DNA of 64,000 nucleotides from a virus. The stretch lies in IMG/VR virus record IMGVR_UViG_3300045988_173323. One strand, written 5' to 3'. Positions 47,891-57,902 of the stretch are shown here, in pieces. The position numbers were made by a program, and so were the translations under genes. Under the pieces are notes generated by a model. The model was not told the DNA's origin and did not search any database. It saw nothing but the letters and a program-made list of their open reading frames with translations. Numbering within the stretch: the first letter of the stretch is position 1; each line of letters opens with the position of its first letter.

Positions 47891-48027
47891 ATATACAAGG
47901 CTTACTTGTTTATTTAATTTTTAAGAGTAAATAAACTAAATCTCTTTTTATAGCTTTACATTTCTATAAAACTATCTCATCAACTATATTATCGTATAAT
48001 TGCTGCATAAAATAAGCCTTTATTTAT

Positions 48028-48372
48028 TTATTCTAAATTTGAAAGCAGTTCAGCAAGTGCATCTTCTGCTCTCTGTTCCAGGATTTCCGCATCGTTAATA
48101 TAAGCAGACATTTCTTCAAGATGCTCTGATGCTTTATTATATATTTCAATCGCTTCTTTAAATTTACCAGAAGCTCTTTCAACTCTTTTCTTCGCAATTT
48201 TTGCATTACATCTCGCAGCGGCAAGAGTTTTTCCTTTCTCCAAGTCAAATGTATCTTTTGGATTACATTTTGCTTTTCCTTTAACAATTTTTCCCGCGTA
48301 TGTAGAAACCGCGACAACAAGATTTTTTGAAGTATAAAACTTATATTTACTTATATCCAGGTCTGTAAACAT
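48028..48372 (-). CDS. Hypothetical protein
   Basis: 114-aa ORF with an RBS/promoter cassette upstream at 48391-48440. Confidence 0.3.
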   Translation of the reverse strand: MFTDLDISKYKFYTSKNLVVAVSTYAGKIVKGKAKCNPKDTFDLEKGKTLAAARCNAKIAKKRVERASGKFKEAIEIYNKASEHLEEMSAYINDAEILEQRAEDALAELLSNLE

Positions 48373-48433
48373 ATCATCAATCTCCTTTTCTTTTGATATA
48401 ATAATTATATCATAATTTTTTTATTTTTTCAAG

Positions 48434-48522
48434 CGTGCGGTAGAGGATTCGAACCTCTGGACCAGGGCTTCCTGGTCGGTGGATTAGCAATCCACTGCAA
48501 TCAGCCTCTCTGCCAACCGCAC
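48434..48522 (-). tRNA. tRNA-Ser(GCU)
   Basis: Acceptor GTGCGGT/ACCGCAC, anticodon arm GTGGA-TTGCTAA-TCCAC, long variable arm CGACCAGGAAGCCCTGGTC, T-arm AGAGGTTCGAATCCTCT. Confidence 0.75.
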
Positions 48523-48525
48523 AGA

Positions 48526-48598
48526 TAGGGAAAGTAGGTAACGATCCTACATCCTAGGATTTTCAGTCCTATGCTTTTACCATATAAGCTATTTCCCT
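48526..48598 (-). tRNA. tRNA-Phe(GAA) with an atypical T-loop (ATCGTTA)
   Basis: Acceptor AGGGAAA/TTTCCCT and anticodon arm TAGGA-CTGAAAA-TCCTA. Confidence 0.6.
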
Positions 48599-48808
48599 GA
48601 GCTGTTACTGTTTTATTTTATTGTGAGAAAACAGTACAAAAAACTCGGCTCATCTAATTTAATTTCTAAAAACTTAAGCTTAAGTGTCTTTACGAGAAAG
48701 CTAGATGCGGTTGCTTATGAAGAATTCCAAATCTTCTCTTTCTTTCTCTTAAAGAAATAATTTAATTTTCTAATTTTCTATGGTGTTGCTATTATTTTTA
48801 CCATAGAA

Positions 48809-48881
48809 TACGGGAAGTGGGACTCGAACCCACAAAATTGAGTTCCTAAGACTCACGCGTATGCCATTCCGCCATTCCCGC
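48809..48881 (-). tRNA. Class-I (short variable loop, 72-73 nt) tRNA with anticodon UAG; Leu-like D-arm but lacking the long variable arm
   Basis: Anticodon arm TGAGT-CTTAGGA-ACTCA. The D-arm TGGCGGAATGGCATACGC is identical to that of tRNA-Leu(CAA) at 49028-49106. The variable region is only ATTTT. T-arm GTGGGTTCGAGTCCCAC. Confidence 0.5.
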
Positions 48882-49027
48882 ATAGTGTAGGTAACCTTCG
48901 CAGAAACCTACTGACTTGCCGATAACTTACATAGTCTCGTATATCTCTTACGCTGAACTATCCTCTCTCCGCAAATACTACCGTAAGGTATAACACCCTG
49001 TTGAGATATTTATAACGAAGGTTTTAA

Positions 49028-49106
49028 TGCTCCTATTGGGATTTGAACCCAAATGATTTCTCCGTAGCTTTTGAGACTACTGCGTATGCCATTCCGCCAT
49101 AAGAGC
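49028..49106 (-). tRNA. tRNA-Leu(CAA)
   Basis: Anticodon arm GTAGT-CTCAAAA-GCTAC, a ~12-nt variable arm, T-arm TTGGGTTCAAATCCCAA. Confidence 0.65.
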
Positions 49107-49110
49107 TTAA

Positions 49111-49195
49111 TGAAGGTGGTGGGATTCGAACCCACAATGTTTCTAATGTAGCGGATTTTAAGTCCGCTCTGTCTCGCCAGTTGCAGCACACCTCC
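49111..49195 (-). tRNA. tRNA-Leu(UAA), copy 1
   Basis: Anticodon arm GCGGA-CTTAAAA-TCCGC, long variable arm, T-arm GTGGGTTCGAATCCCAC. Confidence 0.7.
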
Positions 49196-49282
49196 AAATG
49201 AAGAGTTTTAAACTCTTCAGTTTGTTAATTTATTGTAAGGGAATTAACACCATAAAGGAAGGAAAACAGTTTCATGAACGAA

Positions 49283-49364
49283 TGGGCGTGGTGGGATTCG
49301 AACCCACATAGTTCTAAACCAGCGGATTTTAAGTCCGCCACGTATACCTTTCCGTCACACACCC
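49283..49364 (-). tRNA. tRNA-Leu(UAA), copy 2
   Basis: Same anticodon arm, with a different acceptor (GGGTGTG) and D-arm. Long variable arm. Confidence 0.65.
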
Positions 49365-49694
49365 AAAATGGATAGATTCAAAGGCTCTTTACTCCCCGAG
49401 AGGATAAAACCTTAATATTAAGCATTGACATTAAAGGCTTTGCTAATAGAAAGCTATATCTATCCAACTTTCAAGACAAAAGATTTAATTTATCAGTCTG
49501 TAAAATTATTTAATTATTTGATTATTTGATATTTTAATTATAATGGACGTCCGCAGTACTTTTTGACAGGCACTTCTGCCTCCACGATTTAACCGAATCG
49601 CTCGGACAAGAAAACTCACTTGCGTTGCACATCTATTGTCTGCCCATATGCTTTGACTATCGTAGGTTTTTAAAAAGTAAGCCTATAAACTTGA

Positions 49695-49768
49695 TGCTTA
49701 AGAATGGATTTGAACCACCGACCTCATGTTTATCAGACATGTGCTCTAACCAACTGAGCTACTTAAGC
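49695..49768 (-). tRNA. tRNA-Ile(GAU)
   Basis: Acceptor GCTTAAG/CTTAAGC, D-arm TAGCTCAGTTGGTTAGAGC, anticodon arm CATGT-CTGATAA-ACATG. Confidence 0.75.
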
Positions 49769-50231
49769 TTATATTTCTTTTCTTTTCTTTTGATATATTT
49801 ATTATATCATAATTTTTTATTTTTTTCAAATTATTTTTAGAGCCTATGCTATATGTTTACACCACCGCCACCTAAATAGTCGCTACCTTGCTCAGAAAGA
49901 GGAATTTAATATTTTGTTTTTACAGAAAGGTACAAAATAAACCTATGTCATTTTATAACACAATTTAAAGAAAGAGGTGTGCAACACTAGTTTTTTGCAC
50001 TCACGGCATTTAGGCATCCGCGTTTCATATGACGTCATCTAGTTTTTGCCATGCTTCTATTTTTTAGCCATATTAGCAAAAGATAAGAGAAACACTAACG
50101 AATCTTACTTTCACCCACATTCGGGAACGGTTTCCTAATTCAAACCGCTAAAGTCACTTCATCTCGCATGAAGAGCGTTTGTTCTTATTTACTAATAACT
50201 TCCTAGGTTTATCTGTAAATAAAAGACAAAA

Positions 50232-50305
50232 TTGCGGCGGGTGGGATTCGAACCCACGACCTCTTGGTTATGAGCCAAGCGAGCTTCCAGACTGCTCTAC
50301 CCCGC
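50232..50305 (-). tRNA. tRNA-Met(CAU), initiator-like features; acceptor stem imperfect
   Basis: 5' CGCGGGG, D-arm GAGCAGTCTGGAAGCTC, anticodon loop CTCATAA, and T-arm GGTCGTGGGTTCGAATCCCAC resemble E. coli tRNA-fMet. The 3' acceptor CCGCCGC does not pair cleanly. Confidence 0.5.
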
Positions 50306-50309
50306 GATA

Positions 50310-50539
50310 TTAAAATCTTCCGAGAAAATTTCCCAATTCATCAAAATCAAAACCTACTGGTTCTCTTTCATAACCATTCGCAATCATAAAAGAAACTCTG
50401 GAAGCGGGTAAGGAAGAATACTGCTTTTTTAATTCAGTAAAATCCTTATCAAGAAAATCTTCTACAATAAAAGGACTATTGTGACAAGCAGATTGAATCA
50501 ATTTGATTCCACCAAGTAATTTTTCTTTGTCAGTCATAA
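50310..50539 (-). CDS. Hypothetical protein (start reassigned to MTDKEKLLGG; the listed N-terminal extension overlaps a tRNA-like sequence)
   Basis: GGAGAAAAATCTT-ATG RBS. Confidence 0.3.
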
Positions 50540-50642
50540 GATTTTTCTCCTTTTTTACAAGACAGTTTATTTTAGGTTTATAAGAATTAAAAGTTCTTTC
50601 CTTGAAATTTGAAATAATATAATTGTTTGCAGTATCTGTCTT

Positions 50643-50716
50643 AAAATCACACCAGCGAGACTTGAACCCAGCATTACGACCTTGAAAGGGTCGCGTCCTT
50701 ACCATTAGACCACGGA
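50643..50716 (-). ncRNA. Chimeric/degenerate tRNA-Glu(UUC)-like element
   Basis: Good anticodon arm CGACC-CTTTCAA-GGTCG. The T-stem 5' strand (CTGGG) does not pair with the 3' strand (CTCGC), and the 5' end GCGGCTC does not pair with the 3' TGGTGTG. The 3' portion from the T-loop onward is identical to tRNA-Glu at 51063-51136 within a ~110-bp repeat. Confidence 0.35.
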
Positions 50717-50920
50717 GCCGCATATTTGTACTGGGATTCAAACTCAGGTTCTCAGGTTCTCAGGTTCTCAGAATTAGTCTTGACTGCTTGACTATAAAGC
50801 CAAAAACTTATTACTCTTCTTCAAGCTCCTCATTCATAACTGATTCCCAATATTCAGCATCATCATAAAACTCTTCACACTGAGGACCTAAGTCAAAATC
50901 ATCAAACATAAATATCATTT

Positions 50921-50990
50921 CCTTTCTTTCTTTTGATATATTTATTATATCATATATTTTTTAAAAAATCAATTAAGATTTTTTAATTTA
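50921..50990 (-). promoter_or_regulatory. Repeated sigmaA-type promoter cassette (full-length copy)
   Basis: TTTCTTTCTTTTGATATATTTATTATATCATATATTTTTTAAAAAATCAATTAAGATTTTTT. Confidence 0.5.
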
Positions 50991-51062
50991 CAAGACAGAT
51001 TTATTAGATCTATAAGAATTTTAAGTTCTTTTAAAAATAATATTGCAGTATCTGTCTTAAAA

Positions 51063-51136
51063 TCACACCAGCGAGACTTGAACTCGCGTCTGAAGCTTGA
51101 AAGGCTTCTATCCTGTACCTACTAGACGATGGTGTG
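51063..51136 (-). tRNA. tRNA-Glu(UUC)
   Basis: Acceptor CACACCA/TGGTGTG, anticodon arm GAAGC-CTTTCAA-GCTTC, T-arm GCGAGTTCAAGTCTCGC. Confidence 0.7.
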
Positions 51137-51203
51137 TTTCTTTTCTTTTGATATATTTATTATATCATATATTTTTAAAAAAATCAATTAAGATTTTTTT
51201 CAA

Positions 51204-51277
51204 TCACTCTTAACAGGCTCGAACTGTTATCTTTACCTTGAGAGGGTAATATCCTATTCCTTTTAGACGAAAGAGTG
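51204..51277 (-). tRNA. tRNA-Glu(CUC)
   Basis: Acceptor CACTCTT/AAGAGTG, anticodon arm TTACC-CTCTCAA-GGTAA, T-arm AACAGTTCGAGCCTGTT. Confidence 0.65.
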
Positions 51278-51504
51278 TTATAATATGTGCGATCAGCTTT
51301 AACGCACTTGATGCTTATTAAGTTGGTATTATAAGCATCTTTCATACAAATGGTATTACCAACAGTCATTTATACAAAGTTTTCCCTTTGATCTAATGAC
51401 TAGCTTGACATTCAAGTCTACCGCATCCTCGCGGACTAACTTCATTAGCTTTTAACCAGGTCTATCACAGTTAAGGAGTTTTATGTGTGTTCCTTCGCAC
51501 AGCG

Positions 51505-51587
51505 TGGGCGGTGATGGAGTCGAACCATCCGAGACCGAAGCCATCAGTTTTACAGACTGACCCGCTACCCCTACGGTATAACCACCC
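51505..51587 (-). tRNA. tRNA-Tyr(GUA), copy 1
   Basis: Anticodon arm TCAGT-CTGTAAA-ACTGA, long variable arm, T-arm GATGGTTCGACTCCATC. Confidence 0.65.
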
Positions 51588-51592
51588 AAATT

Positions 51593-51946
51593 TTAAATAC
51601 AATTAATTTTATCAAACATTGGTGCATAACTTTTAACATGATTATGTGTTAAAACGCCCATTAAAGCTTCATTTTCATTTTCTTCTACGATAAAGATACG
51701 AGCCGTATCTGTCGTAATTGCTTGTCTACCTCTTGGAGCAGTTAATAGTTTAGCACATCTTTCAACTCTTTGCATGTCAGTAGTATTAACCTTCCATTCT
51801 TCCTCTAGAACTAACTACTACAAAAACAGGCATATTGTTTTTAATCTTTGGTTTTACATCAAGAATTCTACCACACCAGTTAATATCATATTCTTCATGT
51901 ACATCTGTTACTACTAAATGCGTTTTTACTAATACTTCCGCCATCT
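51593..51946 (-). CDS. Two short adjacent ORFs (51785-51946 and 51593-51775) that may be one gene split by a frameshift
   Basis: MAEVLVKTHLVVTDVHEEYD...SSRGRMEG* then ..VNTTDMQRVERCAKLL... The frames overlap by about 30 nt. The function is unknown. Confidence 0.25.
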
Positions 51947-52169
51947 TATCACTCCTTAAAAGAATTGAAAAAATTCATTATATCTTCATTTACCTTTCTA
52001 GTTTCAATATCTTTACCTTTTGGTGCAGGCTTAGACTGATGAAAAGGATGCTGCTCTTTCCAACAAGATAAAAAATGCTTTGTCAATTTTTGCTCCTCTT
52101 GAAATCTTCTGTGACAAGTTGGACATATGTACATTTTATACTCTCCTTTTGTATATATTCATGTACTAA

Positions 52170-52241
52170 CTGGGGTAGCTGGATTTGAACCAGCGAATAC
52201 AGCAGTCAAAGTGCTGTGCCTTACCGCTTGGCGATACCCCA
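52170..52241 (-). tRNA. tRNA-Gln(UUG), copy 1
   Basis: Acceptor TGGGGTA/TACCCCA with G73, anticodon arm CAGCA-CTTTGAC-TGCTG, T-arm GCTGGTTCAAATCCAGC. Confidence 0.75.
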
Positions 52242-52577
52242 TTATTCTGAAGCATGGGACTTACCTAGAACGTTCCCTCACAGACAAGCTTCTGTGCCAT
52301 CCCCGCGTGTTTTCAGTTTTTTATTGAGTCATGCGGCAAACATACACGGTTTCAAGCCAGGACTCTGTAATTTCGAGATATATTTTATATATTTGATTAA
52401 AGCTCAAATCTAAAATTATTTGCTGTATATATCTCTCTTTACTTTATATAATTATTATATAATATTTTAATTTAAAAATCAATTAAAATATTATTCTGAG
52501 AATGAGGAACTCAAATGTATAAATCATAGTAATATTAATATACCTTACTACTTGGTATTACCTCATCTCAAACTGCC

Positions 52578-52650
52578 CCGGTGGGGATCGAACCCACAAC
52601 ACGCTGGTTAATCAGAAGTTGAGATTTGAACTCAAATATTTTTCCCATTG
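52578..52650 (-). ncRNA. Degenerate tRNA-like fragments (two T-arm hairpins without a complete cloverleaf)
   Basis: GTGGGTTCGATCCCCAC and TTGAGTTCAAATCTCAA. No acceptor or anticodon arms could be paired. Confidence 0.25.
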
Positions 52651-52870
52651 CTCATCAGTGTATTTATCAATTCCTTTTTTATTTTATAAATATAAAGAAT
52701 TAACATTATGAGTTAATCACTGTTGACCATAGTTCAAATGCATTACTTATGCTACTCCCGCACAGCCAGCCGTTCTACCATTGGACTACAGGGCATTAAA
52801 ATGTTACAAGATGCTCTTATTAAATTTTTTCGCCTATACAGAAAATCATTGCTGTATTGCATCTTTAATA

Positions 52871-52930
52871 TTTTCTTTTGATATATTTATTATATCATAT
52901 ATTTTTTAAAAAATCAATTAAGATTTTTTT
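52871..52930 (-). promoter_or_regulatory. Repeated sigmaA-type promoter cassette
   Basis: Full-length consensus copy. Confidence 0.5.
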
Positions 52931-53538
52931 GCCTAGCGTTTCAGGTACTTTTTAGCCCTAACTTATTTGAATAAGGTCTGACATTCACGCATGCTCCTCT
53001 AGTACCATGGGGCTTAGGTCTCGATCAAGTAGTTGTACTCTTTTCATAGCCTGGACTCTTGAAAGATGGTTTAGTTCGTTTTATACCGCCTACTCCTTAT
53101 AGCGGTTTTGGCTGTTTCTCAAAATCCATTTAACCGTTTCATAACACTCATCAGGTTCAACCTGGATTAGGTGACTGCAGCACCAAAGTCCCGTGGAATG
53201 GATTCGAACCATTCTAATAGTTATATACTTTAGCTCGTACTTATTAAATTACTTATAGTATTTTTTCTAGCTTATTATTACTACTTTCATAAAATAGTTA
53301 ACTTACTATTCTCAAACCTTGTCTCAGCGATTACCCAATTTTTCTTAATAAAATTTAGCTAGTTAAATAAAATAAGATCAAATCGCACACGGGTTATAAA
53401 TATTTAATTATTTTGTTATAATGCAGTTTCTTTTCAATTAACCGCTACTCAGACTTACAATTATAACAAGGTTATTAACCTAATGGATAGCACCGTTTAA
53501 AGCTCCTGAACTGCTTACCATCATATTGTAACTTGTTC

Positions 53539-53618
53539 ATAGGCGAGGCGAGATTCGAACCCACACGCACGAGGCACCAGTTCCTAAGACTGGTGTGGCT
53601 ACCATTACACCACTCGCC
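53539..53618 (-). tRNA. tRNA-Leu(UAG), class II with a long variable arm
   Basis: Acceptor GGGCGAG/CTCGCCT, anticodon arm CCAGT-CTTAGGA-ACTGG, variable arm TGCCTCGTGCGTG, T-loop TTCGAAT. Confidence 0.6.
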
Positions 53619-53627
53619 CTTAAAATA

Positions 53628-53700
53628 CTCTAAGTGGAACTCGAACCCACAGCAGCTTAAATGTTGTGTTGTGTTGTGTTTACCAGTTTCATCACTAGAG
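53628..53700 (-). ncRNA. tRNA-like element with an embedded (GTTGT)n microsatellite; anticodon arm not foldable
   Basis: Acceptor GCTCTAG/TTAGAGT with G:U pairs and T-arm GTGGGTTCGAGTTCCAC. The internal ACAACACAACACAACAC repeat replaces the anticodon arm. Confidence 0.3.
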
Positions 53701-53742
53701 CTTATTTAACCACGTGAGAAAAATTTGCACGTGTTAGTAGAA

Positions 53743-53810
53743 TATGTGCGATTTGAACGCCGCCTCAAGTTCCCAAAACTCGTGTGCTACCATTACACCA
53801 CATACTCTAT
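53743..53810 (-). ncRNA. Degenerate tRNA-Pro(UGG)-like element (weak 3-bp T-stem)
   Basis: Anticodon arm CGAGT-TTTGGGA-ACTTG is perfect. The T-stem is only GCG/CGC. Acceptor AGAGTAT/ATATTCT has a G:U pair. Confidence 0.35.
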
Positions 53811-54027
53811 ATTAAAGTAGGCTATTGTAAACTCACCGTCTACCATGGCGACTCATTTAATTTCTCCTTTTCGGATATGTTACAGTGATATAGCTATAAA
53901 ATTGTGGGTGCGATCTTGCCTAGGTTCAAGCCTTTACCCCGGCGGAGCTAGTGCAAGTACTTTTTCCGCTGTGCCCTACACTCTATTGCTGTGTATGCCG
54001 TTCACCGCATTTAATAAAGGATTTGCG

Positions 54028-54098
54028 AGCCGGTAGAGGGATTCGAACCCCGTCTACTGATTACAAGTCAGTTGCATTGCCAACTATGCTATACCGGC
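54028..54098 (-). tRNA. tRNA-Thr(UGU)
   Basis: Acceptor GCCGGTA/TACCGGC, anticodon arm ACTGA-CTTGTAA-TCAGT, T-loop TTCGAAT. Confidence 0.7.
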
Positions 54099-54099
54099 A

Positions 54100-54125
54100 T
54101 TTAAAAAGCGAGTTTCCTCGCCTTA
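54100..54125 (-). terminator. Rho-independent terminator / stability hairpin on the minus strand
   Basis: GCGAG-gaaa-CTCGC followed by TTTTT on the minus strand. Confidence 0.45.
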
Positions 54126-54960
54126 ATAATTTTTTATTAGGCTGAGATTATTGACCTATTATAATTAGCTTTGCTTACCGTTGGAAGTAAGTAATCACAC
54201 GAACGATTAATCCGTAGCTAATAGCGACACCAGTTTCAGTGGCTCCTGGCAAACTCTTACTACATAGTATTATAAATTTCCTTTCAGCACATTCTTCCTT
54301 GCGGGATTCAGAGATTGCAGTCTCTTAGAGTTGCACCTAATTGTACTTTTTCATATCTCACCTTGCGAGTTCAATATGTGTCCATATTACAGAACAATAA
54401 GTCGCTTTTCTCTATGTAGTCATGTACACTTTTGCTGTATAAGTAAATGTTTATTTTCTCATATAATATATTGGAAAACCAAATCAGGCTCTTCCTGATT
54501 AAATATCCAATGCAATCATGTACATATATTATGGATTACGAGGTACACATTTGAGCATCTATACCTTTTGAGTACAGCCCACTCATCGCAACCCTGCTCG
54601 TCTTGCTATCGACTCACTTTAGACTATTCCAACTATCTTTCGATTTAAGTCAGAAATGACTAATTAAATACAGCACTTATTCTTGCGGAATTTGCACCAT
54701 AAAACAACCTTACTGTCCACCCATTTCTGAGTTTACCTATAGCACCTTTCACATGATGCCCAACCAACCATTGTCCTCAGCGGATGCCCCAAAACTTTAG
54801 GTTGGAACGTTAGTAAGTATTGGCTTTCTATTACCCCTCTTTAGAAGGAGGCATTTTCATGCTTTATACGTGTCACCACGCTTATTTAACGACCTGAAGC
54901 CAGCCGATTAGTTTTTCAAACGTGTTCGCCGAAGTTAGTGCGTTGTTGGATAACTAATAA
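54126..54960 (-). ncRNA. ~830-nt GC-enriched non-coding region between tRNA-Gln and tRNA-Thr; candidate large structured RNA
   Basis: No ORF of 60 aa or more on the transcribed strand. GC content is clearly above the genome background, with many local helices. It is bounded by a promoter cassette upstream (55101-55160) and a terminator hairpin. Confidence 0.3.
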
Positions 54961-54966
54961 TCCGAG

Positions 54967-55037
54967 CGGCTCCTACGGGATTCGAACCCATGCCGTCGCA
55001 GTCAAAGTGCGATATGCTACCACTACACCAAGGAGCA
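54967..55037 (-). tRNA. tRNA-Gln(UUG), copy 2 (1:72 mismatch, G73)
   Basis: Anticodon arm TCGCA-CTTTGAC-TGCGA and T-arm ATGGGTTCGAATCCCGT. The acceptor is TGCTCCT/AGGAGCC. Confidence 0.55.
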
Positions 55038-55223
55038 TTATCTGAGACGCATACTCACCTTAAGATTTAATTTACAGTCAAATTTTTGAAATTGCTTTTA
55101 GCGTCTTCTTATCTTTATTACTTATATATTATATAATAATTTTTTATAAAAATCAAATTTAAGTAACCTATCGTTCCGTTCTTCAGTTACTTGGCTTTGC
55201 AATGCAAAGACGGAAACAAAGCG

Positions 55224-55297
55224 TGGAGTTAGGGAGATTCGAACTCCCGACCTCTTGTTTGCAAAACAAGCGTTCATCCCGACTGAACTATAACCCC
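55224..55297 (-). tRNA. tRNA-Ala(UGC), copy 2
   Basis: GGGGTTA acceptor with G3:U70, anticodon arm CTTGT-TTTGCAA-ACAAG, T-arm GGGAGTTCGAATCTCCC. Confidence 0.7.
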
Positions 55298-55405
55298 AAA
55301 ATTAAAGTGCCGGCAAATGCCTAACCTTTAATTTATAAAAAATATAAATGACGAGTTCATAAAAAATGTGTGTTATCATCATACATTTTGGCTTTGTTAG
55401 CCAAA

Positions 55406-55480
55406 CGACTCTGACGGGACTCGAACCAGTGTTATTCCACTGTGACAGAGTGGTACCATAACCAACTAGGCGACAGAGCC
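55406..55480 (-). tRNA. tRNA-Asp(GUC)
   Basis: Acceptor GGCTCTG/CAGAGTC, anticodon arm CCACT-CTGTCAC-AGTGG, T-loop TTCGAGT. The T-stem is imperfect. Confidence 0.55.
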
Positions 55481-55549
55481 AAAACAAGATGGAATTATTT
55501 TTGCACTTAATATCCCCAATATTACGCAACATTGCTGTGTCCATCTTAA

Positions 55550-55631
55550 TTGGGGAGGTAGGACTCGAACCTACGACGTTTCTTTGTCACGGTTTTACAG
55601 ACCGCTACCCTCGCCGCTGGGTTACTCCCCA
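55550..55631 (-). tRNA. tRNA-Tyr(GUA), copy 2
   Basis: Acceptor TGGGGAG/CTCCCCA, anticodon arm GCGGT-CTGTAAA-ACCGT, long variable arm GACAAAGAAACGTC, T-arm GTAGGTTCGAGTCCTAC. Confidence 0.65.
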
Positions 55632-56351
55632 TCATTATTAAGTTGGACAGCTATCCTTTAGAAGACGATGCTTCTGGAGCCTTAATAGTACCCCAAGTAA
55701 TTTACCATTTCTACAAATTACCAAAGATTAGAACAATTTTCTCGTTTTGTTCATTGACGTCAGAATTTTCCGCTACGAGGTATCTGAAATATACCTTTAT
55801 TTTATGTATTTATTATAATATAATTTTTTCAAAAAATCAAATGTTATAATAAATATTTTATGATGCACTCCCAATCTAAAAAACCTGTGGTTTCCTAGGA
55901 AGGATTTTCACCTTCGAGTTCCCATCATAGTGGGCGGTAACTTCTGCATCTTTTCTTATGATATAATAATTATATCATAATTTTTTTAAAAAATCAAATT
56001 GTTTTAAACTTAGGAACAATTTTAACCCCTACCATGGTATCTAGGTCTATTTTTTTCAGCCAGGTTTAACCTAGTTTATTTTTTTCCTTCTAAGTACGCA
56101 GACATCTTTTAGTTCATTTAATTACTTACAGGCTAACTAAGTGAGGAATACGCACTTTCCGCAATCTCTAAACGCCTAGGTTTTTAAAGTACAAAACCCT
56201 AAACTCGAAATTTCCTAGCTTGTTTTCTGGCACAACCTTGGATTCATTCTTGCTAAAAAAGTTTAAGCCATATGTTTTTCTTTATTTCTTATGTATTTAT
56301 TATATCATAAATTTTTCAAAAAATCAATTTAAGATTTTTGTCATAACTTTT

Positions 56352-56675
56352 TTATTTACATCCTAAAAAATATCCATAATGACAAAGTAAATCTTCAATA
56401 TTAGACCTTCCAACAGGATTCATTGAATGACAAACAAAACCGTATAAAGGAATTTTATTCTCCACAATATACTTCGCAATATCGTATCCTGTTTTCTTTT
56501 GACCTAAGTCATGGTCTAAACTAATAAAAACGTTACCTTGACAACAATAAATCTTTAAAGCTTTAATTGCTTGTCTATAAGTTCTACAAACAACTTTTTC
56601 TTCACCCAACCACATTAAGTTCTTTGGAATAGGTCTTTCATCGTCAACCCAAATAAAAGTTTTAACTTTGCTCAT
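56352..56675 (-). CDS. Hypothetical protein (possible receiver/Rossmann-like fold)
   Basis: 107-aa ORF; WVDDERP...ISLDHDLG pattern. Confidence 0.3.
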   Translation of the reverse strand: MSKVKTFIWVDDERPIPKNLMWLGEEKVVCRTYRQAIKALKIYCCQGNVFISLDHDLGQKKTGYDIAKYIVENKIPLYGFVCHSMNPVGRSNIEDLLCHYGYFLGCK

Positions 56676-56742
56676 ATTTCATTCCCTCTCTTATTTCTTA
56701 TATAAATATTATATCATATTTTTTATAAAAAATCAAAAGAAA

Positions 56743-56819
56743 CAGACAGTTTAGGAATCGAACCTAAATCTAAATCTAAATTTTTGGAAAATTTTATGCT
56801 ACCATTGCACCAACTGCCC
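56743..56819 (-). tRNA. tRNA-Trp(CCA) with an expanded 9-nt variable loop containing a tandem ATTTAG hexamer
   Basis: Acceptor GGGCAGT/ACTGTCT, anticodon arm AAATT-TTCCAAA-AATTT, variable region AGATTTAGA, T-arm TTAGGTTCGATTCCTAA. Confidence 0.6.
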
Positions 56820-56829
56820 TCTTAACTAT

Positions 56830-57492
56830 TTAATACCAGCCATTAGCATCCCAAAAAGCTAACGCTGCGTCCCAACTTCCGTATCTTTCCGCCACATATT
56901 GCTCTGCAACTCGCTCTTGATTTTCTGCGGAATAATCTCCATTTAACATAGTGTATGTTAATTGGTATCTTCCTATATACTCTCCTGTTGGGCTAATAGC
57001 ATTATAATCGCCACCAGATTCTCTCTGAGCAATAATTTCTTTCGCAGAATTAGTATATTCATATACATACTCAACTACATTATCTTCTATAGATAAATCT
57101 ATATAATCTTGCTCTGTACTTAAATATTCGTTCCATGCAAAATATTGTTTACCATCTATTTCAATGATATCCCAACCATACTCTCCACTTATTCCAATTC
57201 TATGCACTTCAGTATTTGACTTTAATACCATTATTCGCTCTGAGTCGATAGAAGGAATATTTCGAATATTCAAATTTGCTGTAGTATATACTTCTTCATC
57301 TACTCTTTCAGATGAAAAAAGTACATACTGATTTTCTGAATCTACTATTTGAAAATCGTTATTTTCATCAACAGCAATAAGAACTGGCTCTGAATTAAAT
57401 TTATTTTGATATTCAACGTTTGCCGCGGAAACTGGCAAACTTAAGCTGAACATCATTCCGCCAATTATTAACACTTTTGTAAGATTTTTCAT
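56830..57492 (-). CDS. Secreted IsaA/SceD-like lytic transglycosylase (signal peptide + SLT-like domain)
   Basis: N-terminal signal peptide MKNLTKVLIIGGMMFSLSLPVSA. C-terminal AQRESGGDYNAISPTGEYIGRYQL...W matches the IsaA-type motif ESGGNYxAxNxxSGAxGKYQF. Confidence 0.55.
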   Translation of the reverse strand: MKNLTKVLIIGGMMFSLSLPVSAANVEYQNKFNSEPVLIAVDENNDFQIVDSENQYVLFSSERVDEEVYTTANLNIRNIPSIDSERIMVLKSNTEVHRIGISGEYGWDIIEIDGKQYFAWNEYLSTEQDYIDLSIEDNVVEYVYEYTNSAKEIIAQRESGGDYNAISPTGEYIGRYQLTYTMLNGDYSAENQERVAEQYVAERYGSWDAALAFWDANGWY

Positions 57493-57658
57493 TGTTTTCT
57501 CGCTTTCTTTTTAGTTTTTGATCCCTATAAAGAACAGTTTAAAAATAATTAAGAATCATTTTCAAATAAAAATTTTCAAATAAGAAAATTCTTTATAATA
57601 AGACCATAGGATCTCTTACTCTAAAATGAATTTTAAAGTAATTATTTCATTGTTACAA

Positions 57659-57736
57659 TGCGGAATCTGGGATTCGAACCCAGGACAAACATCGCTTATA
57701 AGGCGACCGCTCTAACCTTGACTGAGCTAATCCCGC
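57659..57736 (-). tRNA. tRNA-Ile(UAU)
   Basis: Acceptor GCGGGAT/ATTCCGC, D-arm TAGCTCAGTCAAGGTTAGAGC, anticodon arm GTCGC-CTTATAA-GCGAT, T-arm CTGGGTTCGAATCCCAG. Confidence 0.65.
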
Positions 57737-57902
57737 ATATCCCCAACTGAGTCTAGCCAATGCTCTTCTGTGGGGTAGTTGATAGCTTTTGCAGATTTCG
57801 CTGCAAAGGGAGTGCATCACTGGGCTTCAGAGGTGCGAATCTCCTCTACGCATTGAATTGGCTACTCTCCCGTCCCGCCCCTGCGTCGATACCTTATTTT
57901 AC

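Follow-up and report, generated by a model that had tools for sequence, protein, structure and literature searches.

What occupies an 867-nucleotide (nt) gap between two complete transfer RNA (tRNA) genes in the genome of a tRNA-rich phage? The question is raised by a 64,000-nt stretch of viral DNA, IMG/VR record IMGVR_UViG_3300045988_173323 (hereafter the window, in its full length), in which ARAGORN called 32 tRNA genes within 43310-57737, on the minus strand throughout. The gap, at 54099-54965, had been flagged by a first-pass annotation as a candidate large structured non-coding RNA, with a self-splicing intron remnant and a functional processed precursor spacer offered as alternatives. 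Our favoured explanation, which we hold to be highly likely, is that it contains a ~770-nt RNA gene of the GOLLD class, carried by an uncultured, tRNA-rich and AT-rich phage. The window copy is a divergent addition to GOLLD and not a new kind of RNA; the class itself, its location in phages and its proximity to tRNAs are already documented in the literature.

At gathering thresholds, an Rfam scan of the whole window returned tRNAs only. In E-value mode over 53500-55400, cmscan matched the GOLLD model (RF02032) to 54594..54139 on the minus strand with a score of 104.2 bits (E = 8.1e-28) across model positions 1-416 of 416, and a search over 17 kb recovered the same match at E = 7.2e-27. The curated gathering cut-off of RF02032 is 150 bits, an operational annotation threshold rather than a biological feature, and GOLLD was missed by the default scan because its score lies below that value. 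The Infernal comparison with Rfam that the first-pass annotation had proposed did therefore identify the element, by E-value only and not at the curated cut-off. The gene spans ~770 nt (54908..54139, minus strand), has a two-domain layout and very probably belongs to the GOLLD class.

The resemblance to GOLLD (RF02032; Weinberg et al. 2009) includes layout, motifs and setting. In that class the 3' domain follows a separate, less conserved 5' domain of ~300-400 nt, the whole RNA being close to 800 nt long, and a rise in expression as phages grow lytically is a further class trait; the window copy likewise has two domains and ~770 nt in total, with the 3' domain matched end to end. A variable linker follows the first 3'-domain hairpin, and in two homologues it contains a tRNA-Leu(GAG) directly before the AGCAAAAGU junction (locus L004, 4579-4651, plus strand; locus L013, oriented 514-587). 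Also shared are the invariant UCAAAAG loop, the AGCAAAAGU junction, three GCAA loops and the 3' end motif UCUCAGCC, which is present in the window copy, as well as the location in a phage beside tRNAs on the same strand. The invariance of AGCAAAAGU among the homologues described below is by construction, because the motif belonged to the search pattern. The window copy differs from GOLLD in its 57-nt clade-specific leader and its 3' hairpin, and in lying within a 32-tRNA array of an uncultured phage of ~31% GC.

Comparison was also made with GOLLD env-38, which by cryo-electron microscopy is a D7 14-mer RNA-only cage with listed bridge residues (Kretsch et al. 2025, PMC12286853). In env-38, A447 and A448 of the P14 loop make the intermolecular A-minor bridge B6 (PMC12286853 Supplementary Table 2), G546/A547 contact C618/U617 in B7, and the kissing contacts B7, B8 and B9 involve GC dinucleotides in the L20, L21a and L21b loops; env-38 has a disordered linker, to which the variable linker of the window copy corresponds, and some GOLLD RNAs hold a tRNA in the linker (PMC12286853). 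Counterparts of B6 to B10 were assigned in the window by sequence context (Table 1), and these retained bridge loops are compatible with a GOLLD-like multimer, without being proof of one. The first ~50 nt of the 5' domain align with the env-38 5' end (GGCCGCUAUGGUCGUCAAAUAAAUACGAAAGUAGGAUAAAG in env-38 versus GGCUGGCUUCAGGUCGUUAAAUAAGCGUGGUGACACGUAUAAAG in the window), the two starts sharing the order P1 hairpin, AAAUAA junction, GNRA hairpin and AUAAAG. Because the env-38 sequence used was an imperfect copy of a PDF table (816 of ~833 nt, with visible errors and local disagreement with the Stockholm file), homology of the 5' domain is firm for these ~50 nt only and suggestive for the rest.

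These matches bear directly on the proposal that the interval is a self-splicing group I or group II intron, or a remnant of one. Size and structured character would fit, and an HNH-like open reading frame (ORF) occurs in a related array (locus L009). However, the E-value-mode scan of 53500-55400 gave no intron, RNase P, tmRNA, 6S, OLE or ROOL match, with introns absent even at E <= 10; the element interrupts no gene but sits between two complete tRNA genes, and it has no ORF; and the GOLLD model covers the 3' domain fully while the 5' start resembles env-38. An intron is thus a very improbable identity for the interval.

Relatives of the GOLLD gene were sought in IMG/VR contigs with a pattern of two conserved GOLLD motifs, AGCAAAAGU ... 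GAAARNNGACUWAU. The search returned 17 loci on tRNA-rich contigs of 52-196 kb, in 16 of which the motif lay between or beside tRNA genes on the same strand. Eight loci are close relatives, 91-96% identical to the window over the whole 867 nt; three are intermediate (85-88%), four are distant (~74% over the 3' domain and patchily similar over the 5' domain) and one is weakly similar. None of the 17 reached the GOLLD cut-off in a gathering-mode scan. E-value-mode rescans of seven loci yielded full-length GOLLD matches in six, at 71-115 bits, all below 150. Locus L003 failed the GOLLD limit of E <= 1e-10, yet it aligns well with L015. Among bacterial and archaeal assemblies, the same pattern found two further copies in tRNA arrays, on 134- and 139-kb contigs of metagenome-assembled genomes (MAGs), scoring 95 and 120 bits. 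Judged by sequence, the loci recovered here are a branch of GOLLD that the curated cut-off misses. Pattern matches lacking a GOLLD match were taken as chance, namely seven of the nine genome-assembly loci scanned (L024, the tenth, was outside the scan) and L016, from a giant-virus MAG.

The tRNA arrays of the relatives are mosaic. In L009, an HNH-type endonuclease frame (...LDHINGKNNDDRLENLRWVCPNCNQQ...) lies ~100 nt upstream of tRNA-Gln (oriented ~1480-1590), and in L008 and L010 there is 0.8-2.7 kb of extra DNA between the nearest upstream tRNA and GOLLD.

The low scores could instead mark a GOLLD-related sister class, sharing the 3'-domain scaffold and having another oligomeric state or function. 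Such a class would explain why the whole clade, at 71-120 bits, falls below the family cut-off: every homologue with a GOLLD match in E-value mode stayed under 150 bits, and the 17 IMG/VR loci all fell short in the gathering-mode scan. Some model stems are also truncated, and the comparison of the 5' domain with env-38 is approximate. Against this, the match extends over the whole model and lacks none of its helices, the loops of env-38 bridges B6-B10 are retained (by sequence context), the 5' domain begins like that of env-38, and the genomic context is as described for GOLLD. The published GOLLD alignment, moreover, covers many cultured phages (Caulobacter, Vibrio, Mycobacterium and others), and the family is broad already, since that alignment spans phages of very different hosts. 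We therefore consider a sister class improbable and retain the assignment to GOLLD itself.

Base pairing was assessed in a MAFFT alignment, A1, of the window and 14 homologues (15 sequences, 74-96% identical to the window; 1009 columns), in which conservation across all groups runs from ~54908 to ~54136 and insertions and deletions fall in RNA loops and the linker. The RNAalifold consensus comprised 154 pairs in 27 helices, and 99 of these pairs had changes on both sides. Standard pairs were formed in 97.2% of cells, compared with 84.7% after shuffling and 34-40% with slid partners, and the 99 pairs with compensatory change compared with 41 and 9-23, respectively; none of 500 shuffles reached any of the observed pairing measures. 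Helices 13-27 agree with the consensus structure of Rfam, itself derived from a different set of sequences; in this 3' domain 13 of the 15 helices had both-side changes, with 93-100% of cells paired. In the 5' domain (helices 1, 2 and 4-12), most helices had compensatory changes and several GNRA/GAAA loops were invariant. The small hairpin of the leader had one U-A pair replaced by C-G in L011 (GGACU...GUCC). Helix 3 (A1 columns 141-143/873-875), which would join the 5' and 3' domains by 3 bp, was set aside as weakly supported. Locus L021 was left out of the fold derivation as an out-of-sample check; it keeps 78 of 90 pairs in the 3' domain, of which 32 differ from the window at both positions, and 39 of 52 in the 5' domain, with slid controls at 36-43%. 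Locus L019 (120 bits) was aligned by MAFFT too poorly for pair counting to be informative, with 45-60% of cells paired. The large structured non-coding RNA of the first-pass annotation is thus borne out by the GOLLD match, by strong covariation in related phages, where it had suggested looking, and by a single-sequence minimum free energy (MFE) z-score of -2.65 (20 shuffles).

The GC content of the interval is 37.6%, the 95th percentile among 835-nt windows, compared with 31.2% in the window as a whole and 31.1% in the remaining array spacers, so the lower AT content that had been noted is real and modest. No ORF in the gap exceeds 55 amino acids (aa) on either strand. The claim that this is the longest ORF-free interval held when ORFs were counted from 40 aa upwards (54499-55121, 623 nt) and failed at a 60-aa minimum, where 52414-53844 is longer (1431 nt); nor is it the longest gap, as 1298 nt at 52242-53539 are free of tRNAs. 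ORFs of 25-55 aa do occur on both strands, and one or more small proteins might accordingly be encoded. The minus-strand maximum is 35 aa, however, the homologue indels fall in RNA loops and the linker, and substitutions among homologues track base pairing, with the 99 compensatory pairs; we give a coding function next to no credence. An interval without an ORF, in a mosaic array with tRNA remnants, might also be non-functional spacer or decayed tRNA debris of a fast-evolving array. Conservation above that of the neighbouring array segments, the strong compensatory variation, a covariance-model match at E = 8e-28 and the presence of homologues in distant contigs make this reading scarcely tenable, and a GOLLD gene is preferred over both.

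Table 1. Features of the GOLLD gene and its immediate surroundings (window coordinates; bridge names as in env-38)
Feature	Coordinates	Strand	Remarks
Promoter-like site, sigma-70 type, TTGATT-17-TATAAT	55128..55156	-	10/12 matches; upstream of tRNA-Gln
tRNA-Gln(UUG)	54966-55037	-	ARAGORN; Rfam tRNA 57.7 bits; directly upstream of the RNA unit as transcribed
Leader, 57 nt	54909..54965	-	Specific to close relatives; absent or different in more distant homologues (alignment A1)
Small leader hairpin GGAUUAUUAGUUAUCC	54963..54948	-	
GOLLD 5' domain	54595..54908	-	Outside the Rfam model; conserved across all 15 homologues from ~54908
P1 hairpin CGGCU/GGUCG	54906..54890	-	Followed by AAAUAA junction
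GNRA hairpin CGUG-GUGA-CACG	54880..54869	-	Followed by AUAAAG motif
GAAA-loop hairpin, 5' domain	54731..54720	-	
Invariant hairpin AAAUCGAAAGAUAG, 5' domain	54648..54633	-	
GOLLD 3' domain	54139..54594	-	Portion modelled by RF02032
First 3'-domain hairpin (P14 equivalent)	54533..54594	-	Invariant loop UCAAAAG at 54572..54564, B6 counterpart by sequence context
AU-rich variable linker	54437..54532	-	Length differs between homologues; inside 3' domain
Linker hairpin AAUCAGGAAGAGCCUGAUU	54500..54482	-	Terminator-like in terminator scan
Junction motif AGCAAAAGU	54428..54436	-	GC dinucleotide is presumed partner of the L20 loop (B7 equivalent), by sequence context
GCAA-type loop CUCGCAAGG (L20 equivalent)	54369..54361	-	GC, with that of the junction, B7 counterpart by sequence context
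GCAA-type loop CUGCAAUC (L21a equivalent)	54320..54313	-	GC, B8 counterpart by sequence context
GCAA-type loop CCGCAAGG (L21b equivalent)	54304..54297	-	GC, B9 counterpart by sequence context
AA loop in GGAUUAAUC	54213..54205	-	B10 equivalent by sequence context
Hairpin GCGAG-GAAA-CUCGC + U5	54103..54121	-	17 nt beyond the GOLLD match and 4 nt short of tRNA-Thr; read directly
tRNA-Thr(UGU)	54027-54098	-	ARAGORN; Rfam tRNA 63 bits; directly downstream of the RNA unit

How, then, might the RNA be made? The flanking genes are tRNA-Gln and tRNA-Thr, as the first-pass annotation had named them, and both are on the minus strand with tRNA-Gln upstream. A promoter had been placed upstream of the interval; the promoter-like site listed in Table 1 agrees with this in position, except that it precedes tRNA-Gln rather than the interval directly. 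From the -35 hexamer onward the sequence is identical in L011, L014, L017 and L002, and further upstream the DNA differs among them; in L011, L014 and L017, homology with the window begins at 55160, at that hexamer. In L017, identity to the window is 92.7% over the stretch that begins at the promoter-like site and ends with GOLLD, versus 80-88% for neighbouring array segments, a contrast that fits purifying selection on the stretch as a cassette. The order of promoter-like site, tRNA-Gln, 57-nt leader, GOLLD, hairpin with U5 and tRNA-Thr does look like a cassette. As a separate observation, a leader of ~90 nt separates the promoter-like site from tRNA-Gln (55038-55127, minus strand); it is conserved in four relatives and contains a long-range inverted repeat, AGACGC...GCGUCU.

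Spacing in the relatives is informative. P1 starts ~5 nt after tRNA-Gln in L003 and L015, and the RNA ends ~10 nt before tRNA-Glu in L003 and ~10 nt before tRNA-Pro in L007. Such tight spacing leaves no room for a promoter of its own, and in these loci the RNA would therefore be made within a tRNA precursor and freed by tRNA end-processing. The arrangement is not uniform, as L004 has a promoter-like TTGAAA-17-TATAAT directly before GOLLD. At the 3' end, the hairpin that had been reported was confirmed by direct reading, although a simple terminator scan did not list it; it is conserved in close relatives with a variable U tract, and L004 and L013 have another hairpin, AGUCUC-UUCG-GAGACU with U6, at the same place. 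Because it stands 4 nt before tRNA-Thr, the window hairpin is less likely to act as a strong stop than as a leaky terminator or as a stem-loop protecting the 3' end.

We propose that transcription would start from the promoter-like site at 55156..55128 and include tRNA-Gln, that the 5' end would be released by 3' processing of tRNA-Gln, and that the 3' end would be set by the hairpin at 54121..54103 and/or by RNase P cleavage at tRNA-Thr. Co-transcription with the tRNAs and processing by tRNA-trimming enzymes are probable on this evidence. Copies of the RNA would then join via kissing loops and A-minor contacts into a large RNA-only cage, an outcome that, by analogy with env-38, we lean towards with somewhat less assurance. 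The processed precursor spacer of the first-pass annotation was in this respect partly right: the element is apparently co-transcribed with tRNAs and cut out, and it is a discrete conserved gene rather than a spacer.

Phage tRNA clusters encode stable small RNAs that are not tRNAs, two in the tRNA region of T4 for example. These are embedded in the tRNA transcription unit and freed by tRNA-processing enzymes, but they are far smaller and unrelated in sequence, and none is known to form a multimeric cage. ROOL RNA is another large ornate RNA of phages and prophages that is often near tRNAs and forms an RNA-only cage (Weinberg et al. 2017, PMC5737381); none of the Rfam searches, whether of the whole window at gathering thresholds, of 53500-55400 or of 17 kb, returned a ROOL match. 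It differs from the present RNA in its unrelated sequence and fold, its length of ~580 nt and its intertwined 5' and 3' regions (PMC5737381).

Several points weigh against the assignment to GOLLD and the accompanying scheme of expression. The score of 104 is below the 150-bit cut-off and some stems are shorter than in the model; the MFE z-score is modest; and both the 5'-domain comparison and the mapping of bridges are approximate, given the imperfect env-38 copy. Fold and pair counts come from the same alignment, so that the counts lean towards the fold, and many of the compensatory cells represent few evolutionary events because close relatives dominate A1. These two caveats, of derivation and of kinship, are answered by the agreement with the Rfam consensus and by the out-of-sample pairing of L021. 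As regards expression, efficient termination at the hairpin with U5 would block expression of tRNA-Thr, and the promoter, the processing sites and the multimer are predictions from sequence.

A bolder and rather unlikely reading is that the sub-threshold GOLLDs are a distinct subtype residing in tRNA operons as a promoter-tRNA-GOLLD-hairpin cassette cut by RNase Z and RNase P, whose cage stoichiometry may be unlike that of env-38 and which may act directly together with the tRNAs of the phage, for instance by holding or shielding them.

The window itself is phage DNA, encoding both topoisomerase II subunits, a RecJ-like exonuclease, a DnaB-like helicase and an endolysin with two lytic domains. 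Among deposited phage genomes there was no nucleotide match to the interval (blastn, distant mode) or to 30000-43000 (megablast), and a search for relatives by way of a neighbouring 220-aa protein found none. The topoisomerase is at most ~41% identical to that of any deposited phage, and the best protein matches among deposited phages, only ~40% identical, are mostly from human faecal samples. By these comparisons the window phage is without a close cultured relative.

Other parts of the array also drew attention. The 218-nt spacer between tRNA-Thr and tRNA-Pro (53809-54026, minus strand) is GC-enriched at ~41-42%; it matches nothing in Rfam, and its conservation in L017 is 88%. Three weak or truncated tRNA-like matches on the minus strand, uncalled by ARAGORN, may be degenerate tRNAs: 43493-43549 (57 nt; 41.4 bits), 53626-53701 (23.1 bits) and 45852-45923 (26.8 bits).

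Within the ORF-free gap at 52242-53539, a ~260-nt block (53186..52930, minus strand) with diverging flanks is near-invariant in six relatives (L017, L002, L009, L010, L008 and L029), and its first 80 nt are missing from L028 and L030. Its consensus fold has 63 pairs in multiple helices closed by a long-range helix, and the window copy differs mainly by compensatory or G-U-compatible changes (e.g. CAGGUUGAACCUG versus CAGAUUGAAUCUG, and CUUAU..AUAAG versus CUUGCG..CGCAAG). The block had no Rfam match at E <= 5, two pattern scans found none outside this phage clade, and a promoter-like TTGATT-17-TATAAT follows it. We regard it as a candidate unclassified structured RNA, which may be more novel than the GOLLD interval. 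Just upstream, at ~53190-53394 (minus strand), lies a split tRNA-like element. Its acceptor strands, ACCCGUG (5', near 53394) and CACGGGA (3', near 53197), stand ~190 AT-rich nt apart, and it has a T-arm GAAUGGUUCGAAUCCAUUC. At the same position L009 has an ordinary 84-nt tRNA-Leu(CAA), and the split element may be either a tRNA that has been disrupted or one carrying a large insert.

Lastly, a match to YrlA (Y RNA-like) at 45937-46050 (minus strand) covers the full model length at 40 bits (cut-off 69; E = 5e-7); its tRNA-like part and outer stem fit, and seven consecutive pairs of the second, inner long helix of the model are unformed. The ORF at 41733-43214 (minus strand, 493 aa), 2.7 kb away, was assigned to PHROG 850 ('RNA-binding protein') and to Pfam DUF2828 and DUF7788, and a PDB sequence search with it gave no match. 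From these annotations, the two may be a candidate phage Ro/Y-RNA-like pair.

GOLLD RNAs are among the largest structured RNAs of bacteria and phages and build a cage bigger than the ribosome, and no biological function has been established anywhere in the family in the literature searched up to mid-2026. The present findings leave knowledge of the class unchanged. The curated Rfam cut-off misses a set of GOLLD genes of uncultured tRNA-rich phages, and routine annotation therefore undercounts the family. The graded set of homologues supplies covariation data for the poorly modelled 5' domain. The ~5-10 nt spacing from tRNA to GOLLD to tRNA in some relatives is concrete evidence favouring maturation through the tRNA-processing pathway, and the subtype reading, if true, would link GOLLD function to tRNA supply during infection.

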